Source of the DNA: Candidatus Marinacidobacterium sp.
GTDB taxonomy: Bacteria > Acidobacteriota > Vicinamibacteria > Marinacidobacterales > Marinacidobacteraceae
Direction: 5' to 3'
Length of the DNA stretch: 64,000 bases
Assembly: GCA_965220965.1 (NCBI GenBank)
Contig: OZ244852.1
Coordinates: forward strand, 2,400,001 to 2,464,000
Below the pieces are notes generated by a model. It did not search any database. It was not told the origin of the DNA and was given only the letters and a program-made list of their open reading frames with translations. Numbering within the stretch: position 1 is the first letter of the stretch; every line of letters begins with the position of its first letter. The translations under genes and the position numbers were made by a program. Below are positions 21,351 through 29,178 of this stretch, in pieces.

Positions 21351-22106
21351 ATGGCCGTCCCGAGCCCGTCCCCGCCAGCGCCGGAACACGGCCCGGCGGC
21401 GCAGGCGGCGCCCCCCCGCGCAAGGGCGGCGGCGTTCTACGACCTCGACGGCACGCTCATCCGGACGAACCTGGTCCACGTGCTCGCCTGGTACGCGAGG
21501 AACGATCAGGGGCTGCTCCGCAGCCTGAAGTCGGTCGCCGCCACTGCGGTCGGAGTTCCGCTGTTCTTCACGACCGACCTGTACAGCCGGAAGGTGTTCA
21601 ACGACCTGTTCTTCCAGTGGTACCGGGGGCAGTCCTACGACCGGCTCCGCTTCCTCGCCGAAGAGCTCCACGAGAAAGTGATCCGCCCCGCGATCTTCCC
21701 CGGCGCCCCCGATCTGGTGGCCCAGGCGCGCCGCGCGGGACTTCGCCCCGTTGTCGTGACCGGGGCCCTCGAAGTCTCGGTTCGGCCGCTGCTCGAGGAG
21801 CTCGGGATCGACGAGTTCGTTGCGAACCGGCTTGAGTTCGTGGACGGCCGCGCCACTGGCCGGCTGTCGCCGCCGGTGCTCGCCGGGGCGAGCAAGGCGC
21901 TGTGGATGCGCGAGTACGCCGAACGCGAGGGTCTCTCGCTGAACGACTCCTACGCCTACGCCGACAGCATGTCGGACCTCCCGATGCTGAGCGTGGTCGG
22001 CCATCCGACCGCCGCCAACCCCGACCTGCGGCTCCGCAGCACCGCCCGCCGCCACGACTGGCCGGTGATCGACCTTCGCCGACGCTCCGCAGGCCCCCCG
22101 GCCTGA
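21351..22106 (+). CDS. elbB: HAD-IB phosphatase, ElbB-like
   Basis: [23 protein letters not shown]; first gene of the elb-like cluster. Confidence 0.8.
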
Positions 22107-22144
22107 CATCTCGTGGACAGGCTCCGCTATCCGAAAGGCCGCTG

Positions 22145-23743
22145 ATGACTCCCAGGCTCCGCTCCAAGACCGACCCCGACATCGTCTTCATCGACAAGGA
22201 CTCGGCGGCGCGCGTTCTTCACAACGGGGAGGACTTCCTCGAGGAGCACCTGCCGGTCGGCACGCGGGTGATCTACCCGCCGCCCCCGATCCGCGGCCTT
22301 CCGAATCCGAGGGGGGCGATCCGCCACGCGCTGAACCATCCGCTCGGGTGCGATCCGCTCCACGCCCAGCTTCGGCCGGGGATGCGGGTCACCATCGCGC
22401 TCGACGACATCAGCCTTCCGCTCCCGCCGATGGCCACGCCGGATGTCCGGCAGACGGCGCTCGAGGTCGTGCTCGAGCTGCTCTCGGACCACGGCGTGGA
22501 CGATGTCCACCTGGTGATCGCCAACTCGCTCCACCGAAAGATGACCGAGGCCGAGATGCGGCGGATGGTGGGACCGGACATCCACAAGGCGTTCTATCCC
22601 TCGCGCTACTACAACCACGACGCCGAAGACCCCCGGGGCATCGTCGCCATCGGAGAGACGCGCCACCACGAGCCGGTGCGGGTGAACCGGCGCGCCGCCG
22701 AGAGCGACCTGGTCATCTACCTGAACATCAACCTGGTCCCGATGGACGGCGGCCACAAGTCGGTCACCGTCGGCCTCTGCGACTACCAGAGTCTTCGCCC
22801 CCACCACGAACCCCAGACGATCCGCGACTCGGACGGCTACATGGACCCCGCCCGCTCCGCGCTGAGCCACAAGGTGGACCGGATGGGCAAGCTGGTGGAC
22901 GAGCACATGAACGTCTTCCACATCGAGACGGTGCTCAACAACCGCATGTATGCGGACCCGCTCTCGTTCCTGGCGAAGAACGAGGACGACTTCACCGATC
23001 TCGACCGCGTGAAGCTGGCGGCGACGCGCTGGACGCTGGGGAAGCTGCCGCCCGCCGCGAAACGGAACTTCCTCCACCGGGTCCCCGGGGCGTTCGAGCT
23101 GATCGGCTGCTACGCCGGCCGCACCGAACCGGTGCATGAACGCACCCTCGCCCGCTCGTTCGAGCAGTACGCGGTTCCGGTGAAGGGCCAGTGCGACATC
23201 CTGCTGTCCGGGATCCCCTACATCTCCCCGTACAACGTGAACTCGATCCTGAACCCGCTGCTGGTCCAGGTCATGGGGCCCGGGTACCTGTTCAACCTCT
23301 ACCGCGGCAAACCGCTCGTGCGGAAGGGCGGCGCCCTGATCCTGGTCCACCCCTGCCGGGACGAGTTCGACCCGCTGTTCCATCCGAGCTACATCGAGTT
23401 CTTCCACCGGCTGCTTCCCGAGACCCGGGATCCCTTCGTGCTCCGGGAGCGGTATGAGGAGGAGTTCGCGAACAACCCCTCCTACGTCCAGATGTACCGC
23501 GACGGGAACGCGTACCACGGGGCCCACCCGTTCTTCATGTGGTACTGGGGCGAGAACGGCCGGCAGCACGTGGGCCGGATCATCGTGGCCGGCGCCGAAA
23601 ACCAGCACGTTCCCGAGATCCTGGGGTGGGAGCGCGCCGACACCGTGACCGAGGCGATCGCCATGGCGCGCAGCGAACTTGGCCAGTCCGCCAGCGTCTC
23701 GCTGCTCCATGTGCCGCCGATCATGATCCCCGAGGTCTCCTGA
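22145..23743 (+). CDS. elbC: Lactate racemase N-terminal (DUF2088/LarA-like) domain protein, ElbC-like
   Basis: [42 protein letters not shown]. Confidence 0.78.
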
Positions 23744-28127: not shown

Positions 28128-28143
28128 GAAGGGGTCGGCCGCC

Positions 28144-29178
28144 ATGCCGGAAGAAGAGGGTCCGGGACCGTCCGGGCCGGACCCGACGCGCCCGGTCCTG
28201 GTCACCGGGGGAACCGGGTTCCTCGGGACCCACCTGCTCGATGTGCTGCTGGGAGGCGACCGCGATGGCGCCGCGCCCCTTCGTGTTCTGGCGCGCGAAC
28301 CCGCGCCGAGGCTCGCCGCGCGCGGCGTCGAAGTCGTGGAGGGGGACCTCCTCGAGGGGCCGGGGCTCGAGGTGGCGCTGGGCGGAGTCCGTGCGGTGTT
28401 CCACCTGGCTGGCATGGTGTCCCGCGATCCCGACGCCGCCGCCCGGCTCCAGCAGGTCCACGTGGACGGCGCCCGCCGTCTCGCCGGGCTGGCCCGCGCC
28501 GCCGGCGTCGAGCGGATCGTGCTGGTCTCGACCAGCGGGACGATCGCGGTGACCACGGGCCCCGAGCCGGAACTCGAGGAGTCGGCGCCGACCCCGATCG
28601 ACCAGATCGGGGGCTGGCCCTACTACCGCAGCAAGTGGCTCCAGGAGCGCGCCCTGCTCTCCGCGGCGGAGGACCTGGAGGTCGTCGTCGTGAACCCCTC
28701 GCTGCTTCTCGGTCCGGGAGACGAGCGGCTGTCCTCGACCGGGGATGTGCTCCGGTTCCTCGCCGGGGAGGTTCGCGTGATCCCGCCCGGAGGGCTGAAC
28801 TTCGTGGACGTCCGGGACGCCGCCGCGAGCGTGGCCTCGGCGATGACCCGGGGCCGGCCGGGACACCGCTACCTGCTCGGCGGCCACAACTGGAGCTTCG
28901 CCGACTTCTTCGCCCGCCTGGGCGAGGTCTCCGGCCTGACCGCCCCCCGCCTGCGGCTCCCGAAGGAGGTCTATACCGCCGCCGCGCTCGTCTCCGAGGA
29001 GGCGGCGCGACAGTTGGGTCGCGAACCCGCGGTGGACCGGATCAGCCGCGAGATGGCCGCGAGTTACTGGTATTTCAGTTCGGCGAAGGCGGAGCGGGAA
29101 CTCGGCCACACGGCGCGCGACGGTCGCCTCACCCTGCTGGAGACGGTTCGCTGGCTCGACGGTCGCGGGCTGGCCTGA
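28144..29178 (+). CDS. elbE: NAD-dependent epimerase/dehydratase (extended SDR), ElbE-like
   Basis: TGGTGFLG, VFHLAG, YYRSK, FVDVRDAA. Confidence 0.82.
   Translation: MPEEEGPGPSGPDPTRPVLVTGGTGFLGTHLLDVLLGGDRDGAAPLRVLAREPAPRLAARGVEVVEGDLLEGPGLEVALGGVRAVFHLAGMVSRDPDAAARLQQVHVDGARRLAGLARAAGVERIVLVSTSGTIAVTTGPEPELEESAPTPIDQIGGWPYYRSKWLQERALLSAAEDLEVVVVNPSLLLGPGDERLSSTGDVLRFLAGEVRVIPPGGLNFVDVRDAAASVASAMTRGRPGHRYLLGGHNWSFADFFARLGEVSGLTAPRLRLPKEVYTAAALVSEEAARQLGREPAVDRISREMAASYWYFSSAKAERELGHTARDGRLTLLETVRWLDGRGLA

Follow-up and report, generated by a model that had tools for sequence, protein, structure and literature searches.

An intact elbB-elbC-elbD-elbE operon is present in the 64,000-nucleotide stretch of Candidatus Marinacidobacterium sp. 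DNA analysed here (the window, G000:C1:2400001-2464000 of a 3.25 Mb genome in 2 contigs that is 94% complete and ~70% G+C). Judging from its sequence, the operon (21351-29178, + strand) probably encodes the AGPS-independent ‘elb’ route to 1-O-alkyl glycerol (ether) lipids and is native to its acidobacterial host, in which it would have been inherited vertically. The second of its genes encodes a putative nickel-pincer nucleotide (NPN) protein of the LarA family.

The elb pathway was first delineated by genetics in Myxococcus xanthus, whose elbA-elbE genes form MIBiG entry BGC0000871 (Lorenzen et al. 2014, as cited in PMC9131029, PMC9426513 and PMC13159169). The M. xanthus ElbD has the accession ABF88003.1 (PMC11868695). 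In one review, disruption of elbD is reported to lower alkyl and vinyl ether lipids strongly and disruption of elbE to lower them, whilst the effects of elbB disruption are put down to polarity and ElbC is described as ‘a protein of unknown function’ (PMC9131029). Insertions in elbA are reported in the same place to be without effect and elbA would therefore not be a functional requirement. An elbB-E cluster has also been described in subdivision 4 Acidobacteria and proposed as the source of their ether lipids (PMC13159169 and PMC11868695, both citing Sinninghe Damste et al. 2018).

The original prediction for this region, made from the DNA letters alone, had four closely spaced, co-oriented genes at 21351-29178, and the mechanically called open reading frames (ORFs) bear this out, the interval matching their first start and last stop exactly. 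The + strand ORFs run from 21351-22106 (251 amino acids), 21902-23743, 23748-28127 (1459 amino acids) and 27943-29178. Those of the second and fourth genes begin within the preceding genes, and the likely starts are the ATG codons at 22145 and 28144, giving proteins of 532 and 344 amino acids, respectively. With these starts the intergenic gaps are 38, 4 and 16 bases, a spacing that suggests an operon. Codon-position G+C marks all four genes as coding, with third-position G+C (GC3) of 0.88-0.93 in the four gene frames against an overall G+C of about 0.70. A scan of 20000-31200 returned 0 promoter-like and 3 terminator-like sites, no excess over shuffled sequence.

The first gene (21351..22106, +) encodes an ElbB-like HAD-IB phosphatase (PF12710, 122 bits; TIGR01490, 121.8 bits against a cut-off of 98.3) with DLDGT and DSMSD motifs in its translation. 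The second (22145..23743, +) encodes the ElbC-like protein of the LarA superfamily, a putative one-histidine NPN enzyme (Lar_N PF09861, 124 bits). The third (23748..28127, +) encodes ElbD, a fusion of fatty acyl reductase (FAR), acyl-AMP ligase, acyl carrier protein (ACP) and PlsC-type acyltransferase that is identified by its Pfam domains, motifs, orthology and position in a tree. The fourth (28144..29178, +) encodes an ElbE-like extended short-chain dehydrogenase/reductase (SDR) of the NAD-dependent epimerase/dehydratase family (PF01370, 82 bits) with GGTGFLG and YYRSK motifs; its best NCBIfam match is HpnA (TIGR03466), at 224.6 bits and below the 367.65 cut-off.

Four Pfam domains are seen in ElbD, namely NAD_binding_4 (residues 25-358, 169 bits), AMP-binding (567-961, 266 bits), PP-binding (1120-1185, 41 bits) and Acyltransferase (1237-1363, 87 bits), together with a ‘Sterile’ match at 482-543 that scores 24 bits, under the 35.4-bit cut-off. 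The claim that all catalytic motifs are present in the 1459-residue fusion held up when the translation of all four domains was read for the standard textbook motifs. The reductase has a Rossmann GGTGFLG (25-31) and YTYTK (Y280, K284), the ligase TSGTTGSPKG (727-736), GYGLTE and TGDLG, the carrier a DSL with Ser1149, and the acyltransferase H1256-X4-D1261 and PEGTRS (1331-1336). Most of these motifs are invariant or nearly so in 13 diverse homologues (30-71% identity), with Y280, K284, S1149, H1256, D1261 and E1332-R1335 unchanged in all of them.

Gene-for-gene orthology with the elb loci of cultured myxobacteria carries much of the assignment. All figures given for loci and contigs refer to the matches listed in our contig scans. 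No Myxococcus is among them, and the cultured myxobacteria are Enhygromyxa salina (three strains), Plesiocystis pacifica SIR-1, Labilithrix luteola DSM 27648, Polyangium fumosum DSM 14668 and Minicystis rosea DSM 24000. The separate list of ElbD protein homologues gives the best 120 matches, all at 49-86% identity. Each of five cultured myxobacterial genomes encodes exactly one full-length counterpart of the window ElbD, at 38-40% identity and 947-1002 bits, the next best match in these genomes reaching at most 211 bits. Reciprocal best hits were obtained with E. salina SWB007 for ElbB (43% identity), ElbC, ElbD, ElbE and the lipid kinase encoded downstream, and with L. luteola for ElbD and ElbE; ElbE is 43-44% identical to its E. 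salina and L. luteola counterparts. The reciprocal search proposed in the original prediction is thus positive for all four genes with E. salina as the comparator in place of M. xanthus ElbB-E.

Domain order and gene order likewise match those of elb loci, as had been predicted. In both E. salina SWB007 and P. pacifica SIR-1, elbB-elbC-elbD-elbE are followed by the kinase, all on one strand, and the M. xanthus operon has the same parts according to the review (PMC9131029). Among 208 distinct contigs with an elb-type ElbD (rows below 35.5% identity and loci without an ElbD match having been dropped beforehand), the B-C-D-E order and strand are found in 70 of the 71 Acidobacteriota-labelled contigs with enough flank and in 29 of 56 Myxococcota- or delta-labelled ones. 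L. luteola, M. rosea and P. fumosum have elbC 13 to 250 kb away from the rest of elb.

A tree of 44 ElbD rows (IQ-TREE quick search, LG+G4) separates a 36-row elb-type clade (SH-aLRT 100) from an 8-row out-family across long branches, support being less trustworthy where rows are long (L128). The window ElbD is nested in a marine acidobacterial clade within the elb-type clade, which also includes the myxobacterial ElbD proteins. Grouping with wax-ester or triacylglycerol enzymes had been named as a result that would overturn the prediction; ElbD sits with myxobacterial ElbD, in a tree whose rows exclude both true wax-ester/triacylglycerol enzymes and M. xanthus. The out-family (L028-L035; G250, G230, G124, G200, G112, G033, G136 and G190) occurs in other Acidobacteriota; its proteins share all four domains with ElbD and are 30-33% identical to it. 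Its members have RGWNDTYTYTK in place of WGWPNIYTYTK, lack an adjoining elbC or elbE and often lie beside a lipid kinase gene.

ElbC is the best-conserved protein of the cluster, its identity to the window copy exceeding that of ElbD in 152/152 contigs that have both. It matches the NCBIfam model for the ‘NPN-dependent hydroxyacid isomerase, LarAH14/15/16 family’ (NF052592) at 820 bits against a cut-off of 740, and matches the solved one-histidine LarA homologues 9q2u and 9q3j by sequence (E 4.7e-37, or 3.8e-46 with a profile). The AlphaFold model of ElbC (pLDDT 88.3, pTM 0.89) has 9q3k_A as its best Foldseek match (E 2.3e-35, TM 0.85), and every Foldseek match with E ≤1e-15 is a LarA-family entry. 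Identity to the solved LarA-family structures is 19-23%. Like the solved one-histidine enzymes, ElbC is about 100 residues longer than canonical LarA.

In a profile alignment, Lactobacillus plantarum LarA His108, Lys184 and His200 correspond to ElbC H130, K205 and H221 and the LarA Asp to D88, residues to which nickel binding, covalent attachment of the cofactor and catalysis have been assigned in LarA (PMC12611868). All four are among 70 positions invariant in 150 distinct ElbC orthologues (48-92% identity). The second catalytic histidine (LarA His174), which racemisation requires, is lacking in ElbC, where Asn196 (profile alignment) or Val198 (sequence alignment) stands instead. Groups 14 and 15 are described as having no His174 equivalent (PMC12611868), and the missing residue, a hallmark of these groups and of the one-histidine subfamily, argues against racemase activity and not against membership of the branch. 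ElbC is thus, by its sequence, a putative one-histidine member of the NPN LarA family that keeps every cofactor-holding residue. With LarAH14/15/16 and with LarA-Sp and LarA-Bw (9q2u, 9q3k, 9q3j; Desguin et al. 2020, PMC7583248; PMC12611868) it shares the fold, the Lys, the His, the Asp and the first catalytic His; it differs in a genomic context of lipid synthesis rather than sugar metabolism.

Does ElbC hold the cofactor? It is possible, if somewhat doubtful, that the protein has the LarA fold without the nickel-pincer cofactor, acting as a binding or scaffold subunit or with some other cofactor, so that nickel would play no part in the pathway. The loss of the second catalytic histidine would fit this, and further observations count against a nickel enzyme. 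The position of LarA Arg75 (numbered in the Thermoanaerobacterium thermosaccharolyticum enzyme) is Leu in the ElbC profile alignment, and Frankia LarAH14 was inactive on the hydroxy acids tried (PMC7583248). The window genome encodes LarC (164.7 bits, cut-off 90), LarE (264.1, cut-off 150) and LarB (271.5, cut-off 175), scattered on contig 1, and it also encodes a second, canonical LarA homologue (G000:C1:1730599-1731921) that scores 442.9 bits against the lactate-racemase cut-off of 460. LarC is present in 17/20 ElbC-negative genomes. With LarC in such genomes and a second LarA homologue in this one, the cofactor genes are not specific to ElbC here.

Against these points stands the invariance, across the 150 orthologues, of the first catalytic His and of the three residues expected to contact the cofactor (the Lys that links it covalently, the His that binds nickel and the Asp at the ribose). 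Among solved structures, moreover, ElbC is closest to one-histidine LarA homologues that use NPN, one of which has been determined with the cofactor loaded (PMC12611868). Genome context points the same way. In at least six distinct Nannocystaceae-type contigs (L247, L248 (3453-6407), L250, L251, L252 (= L148) and L254 (= L151)), larB, larE and larC lie directly upstream of elbB-elbC-elbD-elbE on the opposite strand, head to head with the operon. Those of P. pacifica SIR-1 (L248) are recognised by NCBIfam as LarB (274.7 bits, cut-off 175), LarE (296.4, cut-off 150) and LarC (173.3, cut-off 90). The arrangement is lacking in the three E. salina strains.

Other genomes supply stronger context than the cofactor genes of the window genome. 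ElbC is found in 28/28 genomes chosen for an elb-type ElbD (two of the copies being in pieces) and in 0/20 ElbD-negative genomes of the same class. LarC is found in 27/28 of the ElbC-positive genomes, the single miss being a genome 84% complete, and, set beside the 17/20 among ElbC-negative genomes, its co-occurrence does not discriminate and was rejected as a test of cofactor dependence. In six of the 28 genomes, from four cultured myxobacteria and two acidobacteria (one with a TAA in its elbC), no Lar_N protein other than ElbC was detected, yet LarC has been kept in every one of the six. These figures are plain counts and not statistics, as related genomes are not independent.

We tentatively propose that ElbC is an NPN enzyme and the missing catalyst of the AGPS-independent ether route, although we regard this as less likely than not. 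ElbC would transiently oxidise the C2 hydroxyl of acyl-glycerol-phosphate, the fatty alcohol from ElbD would take the place of the ester (a role filled by AGPS elsewhere), and the hydride would then be returned. A literature search identified no paper joining lactate racemase with ElbD, and the sole overlap of nickel-pincer with ether lipid was an unrelated Haloferax annotation paper. In the searched text of a recent preprint on elb-like clusters, the words elbC, LarA, DUF2088 and nickel do not occur (bioRxiv 10.64898/2026.06.23.733905).

The pathway as a whole might run as follows. The ligase domain of ElbD would activate a fatty acid and load it onto the protein’s own ACP (Ser1149), the N-terminal FAR-type domain would reduce the thioester to a fatty aldehyde or alcohol, and the C-terminal PlsC-type domain would acylate a glycerol-phosphate backbone. 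ElbC, speculatively, would carry out an NPN ‘hidden redox’ reaction on a hydroxyl of the glycerol-phosphate intermediate, which would either enable the exchange of ester for ether or constitute it. ElbE could reduce an aldehyde or keto intermediate, and ElbB could take off the phosphate. The neighbouring lipid kinase may then re-phosphorylate the alkyl-acyl-glycerol and the inositol-phosphate-synthase-like transferase add a head group, with the divergently encoded FabH feeding in an acyl chain. The logic resembles that of the FAR1/GNPAT/AGPS route (eukaryotic, and MXAN_1674-1676), where a FAR-type supply of fatty alcohol is likewise combined with an acyltransferase acting on a glycerol-phosphate or dihydroxyacetone phosphate backbone. 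That route has AGPS, whereas the window genome has no recognisable AGPS by a search in which no AGPS-specific model was used.

The PEDS1-type (CarF) desaturase model PF10520 has no match in the genome (94% complete), nor did its control match in any genome, and alkyl rather than vinyl ethers might therefore be expected. PF06050, for the HGD-D domain of PlsA/Ger-type enzymes, likewise has no match in the 94% complete genome, its control having matched in 2/14 genomes. That the organism would make ether lipids aerobically, as the original prediction had it, is suggested by this result, by a haem-copper oxidase gene in the genome and by the absence of known oxygen-sensitive parts.

What could the operon make if not an ether lipid? 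It is rather unlikely, in our estimation, that the operon is real and yet its product is something else (wax-type esters or free fatty alcohols, an acyl-glycerol of an unusual kind, or a product of lipid remodelling), ElbD-type fusions not being diagnostic of ether bonds. Several points nevertheless weigh against the ether-lipid reading and some of them favour this alternative. Pfam puts the FAR domain of ElbD and the fatty acyl reductases of wax-ester synthesis in one family. Two papers do not regard the formation of the ether bond by elb as conclusively shown (PMC13159169, PMC11868695; in the latter, it ‘has not been conclusively demonstrated’), and Pontiella isolates are reported in which elbD homologues are present yet no ether lipids were seen (PMC11868695). 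An AGPS-like ether synthase is not recognisable in the genome, where the two FAD-oxidase_C proteins have GlcD (492 bits, cut-off 897) and YdiJ (621 bits, cut-off 1350) as their best NCBIfam matches, both below cut-off, in a search that used no AGPS-specific model or reference. Ether-lipid production by this organism we infer from genes alone, and the orthology on which the reading draws is with cultured myxobacteria other than M. xanthus, whose ElbB-E were not in the comparison. The second NAD-epimerase-family gene of the M. xanthus locus, elbA, is not found upstream of elbB, where the divergent FabH gene lies instead. Finally, two elbC copies in other genomes read as interrupted: in the closest named relative (G301:C1:3109001-3110556, the genome behind locus L006) elbC is in two pieces matching profile positions 2-161 and 160-519, and a copy at G057:C3:469497-471048 has an in-frame TAA. 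Either might reflect a frameshift, a pseudogene or an error of assembly.

An alkyl ether product remains the reading we prefer. The operon shares both orthology and gene order with the myxobacterial elb loci, where disruption of elbD lowers alkyl and vinyl ethers (PMC9131029), and the tree places the window ElbD with the myxobacterial proteins and apart from the other four-domain family. By Pfam, ElbD has no WS/DGAT-type domain and its transferase is of the PlsC type. The operon is, in addition, tightly linked to glycerolipid genes, namely those for the lipid kinase and the CDP-alcohol transferase.

The original prediction placed the cluster outside a myxobacterial context, and genome markers agree. 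The 16S gene is 98% identical to that of the metagenome-assembled genome (MAG) behind L006, titled ‘Vicinamibacteria bacterium’, 96% identical to those of the MAGs behind L005 and L004 (the latter titled ‘Candidatus Marinacidobacterium sp.’) and 91% identical to that of the MAG behind L025, titled ‘Ca. Marinacidobacterales’, against 79%, over 121 bases only, for E. salina. The ATP synthase beta subunit follows the same order in the same genomes (92-93%, 82% and 65%). The titles of the 26 loci with the most similar ElbD (44-84% identity) name Acidobacteria, Acidobacteriota, Vicinamibacteria or Marinacidobacter* in 25 cases and an ‘uncultured bacterium’ in the remaining one, and several of the nearest-relative loci bear isolate names typical of sponge metagenome bins. 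By these markers, therefore, the host is an acidobacterium of a marine, sponge-associated lineage labelled Vicinamibacteria / Ca. Marinacidobacterium, and not a myxobacterium.

Related clusters in Acidobacteria had been mentioned in the prediction, correctly so (PMC13159169, PMC11868695, PMC9426513). The novelty it implied does not stand, since elb-like clusters have been published for sponge-associated Acidobacteriota of subdivision 6: the cluster is real, but for this lineage it is already known. Families of elb-like clusters are on record from sponge metagenomes, and the ones recovered in MAGs come from Poribacteria and from subdivision 6 of the Acidobacteriota (Loureiro et al., PMC9426513; bioRxiv 10.64898/2026.06.23.733905). 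Both sources report a homologue of elbD in which reductase, ligase, thiolation and AGPAT domains are combined, and diacylglycerol (DAG) kinases, CDP-alcohol phosphatidyltransferases and 3-oxoacyl-ACP synthases adjoining the clusters. The window matches this description gene for gene, all three neighbour types included, the comparison being one of description and not of sequence, and its nearest relatives carry sponge-type MAG labels. The M. xanthus locus differs in having elbA, in its host and in its neighbours, which in the acidobacterial window encode FabH, a DUF255 protein, the lipid kinase and the CDP-alcohol transferase. Subdivision 4 Acidobacteria have the same B-C-D-E order in Pyrinomonadaceae- and Blastocatellia-labelled contigs and identities to the window proteins of 47-51% for ElbD and 63-71% for ElbC, but they belong to another class and have other flanks, without the DUF255-FabH pair.

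Within the window’s own class the distribution is patchy. The elbC family model matches in 41/41 genomes sampled from the genus, family and order of the window (a sample that includes the window’s own genome and one unpublished genome, G342), with 40/41 above cut-off. Outside the order but in the same class, a full-length ElbD was found in 0/27 genomes of a phylum sample and elbC in 0/20 genomes tested. Of the 300 other genomes in the phylum sample, 19 have a single full-length ElbD match at 44-51% identity, four more have split or cut matches at 45-51%, and 20 (one unpublished, G049) have a full-length match at 32-37%.

The nine-gene neighbourhood (the DUF255 gene, FabH, elbB-E, the lipid kinase and the CDP-alcohol transferase) recurs in close relatives at 61-92% identity, and in the three closest named MAGs a distance of 6-11 kb separates the ATP synthase from elbC. 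Because elbC is in all 41 genomes of the order, the neighbourhood is conserved, the ATP synthase linkage is shared and G+C is even across the region, recent transfer appears very unlikely and the cluster is best regarded as intact, native and vertically inherited. A recent acquisition from myxobacteria, or residence in a mobile island, is accordingly highly improbable, despite defence-type and restriction-modification genes on both flanks (10634-17288 and 31186-33757) and an ElbD tree that mingles Myxococcota-labelled MAG rows and one Gemmatimonadaceae-labelled MAG row with acidobacterial ones: the G+C and GC3 of the cluster equal those of its surroundings, and the window ElbD is no more than 38-40% identical to that of cultured myxobacteria, no near-identical myxobacterial copy having been seen. 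The mingling of phyla in the tree does imply some transfer between phyla in the history of the family.

Upstream of the operon, a FabH-type beta-ketoacyl-ACP synthase III (20175..21251, -; NF006829, 413 bits against a cut-off of 249; Pfam ACP_syn_III and C-terminal domain) is encoded divergently from elbB and is conserved in close relatives at 73-86% identity. Beyond it lies a gene for a DUF255/thioredoxin-domain protein (18026..20110, -; Pfam Thioredox_DsbH, 236.7 bits). It is a conserved neighbour of the cluster in the marine acidobacterial group, and its counterparts in the close-relative loci L002-L023 and L026 are 61-75% identical and lie in the corresponding position. We considered whether this might be the ‘GlcNAc 2-epimerase’ of the preprint and ruled it out, as Pfam gives thioredoxin-type domains only.

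Downstream, and convergent with elbE, is a lipid kinase of the YegS/DAG-kinase family (29218..30234, -; DAGK_cat, YegS_C), for which every NCBIfam lipid-kinase model scores under cut-off. Many elb loci of acidobacteria and myxobacteria likewise have such a homologue downstream of elbE. In the window the kinase is followed by a CDP-alcohol phosphatidyltransferase (30351..31094, +; PF01066, 61 bits) that is closest to (archaetidyl/phosphatidyl)inositol-phosphate synthases, its matches to NF040950 (126 bits, cut-off 180) and NF045883 (106 bits, cut-off 170) both lying below cut-off; the transferase follows the kinase also in L005, L006, L013, L015-L018, L023 and L026. Some 10 kb downstream of the cluster (40393-43879, -), a myo-inositol-1-phosphate synthase domain occupies only the C-terminal half of an over-long 894-residue ORF, which is adjoined by a small 4Fe-4S protein. 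Together with the transferase, this domain hints at inositol head groups.

Genes of the defence or restriction-modification type lie on both flanks. A block at 10634-17288 (-), which separates the lipid genes from the ATP synthase operon, encodes two methylases, one Type II-like (441 bits) and one Type III-like (519 bits), and a 999-residue ResIII helicase protein. It might have been inserted there, given that the three closest named MAGs have the ATP synthase nearer to elbC. Just past the CDP-alcohol transferase (31186-32954 and 33014-33757) are defence-candidate genes, with an AAA_21 ATPase and a DUF3226 protein matching the PADLOC candidate pair PDC-M38A/B (256 and 108 bits) and a DUF5131 protein matching PDC-M41B/M30B. 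Further along, at 39597-40283, 52599-53720 and 61024-62178, are an AbiEii-type nucleotidyltransferase gene and two copies of an AAA_14/DUF4143 ATPase.

The cluster itself adds little, since the system is published and this lineage is among those from which it has been reported. Of greater interest is the possible link between ElbC and nickel, which could offer a handle on how, in the absence of AGPS, the elb route forms its ether bond: ElbC, the best conserved of the four, is a one-histidine LarA homologue with a complete cofactor site and, with the cofactor genes adjoining the operon in one myxobacterial family, the idea is testable in a tractable organism. If it is true, elb ether-lipid synthesis, both here and in myxobacteria, would depend on nickel and larBCE, and ElbC would provide the first physiological role for the uncharacterised LarAH14/15/16 branch.

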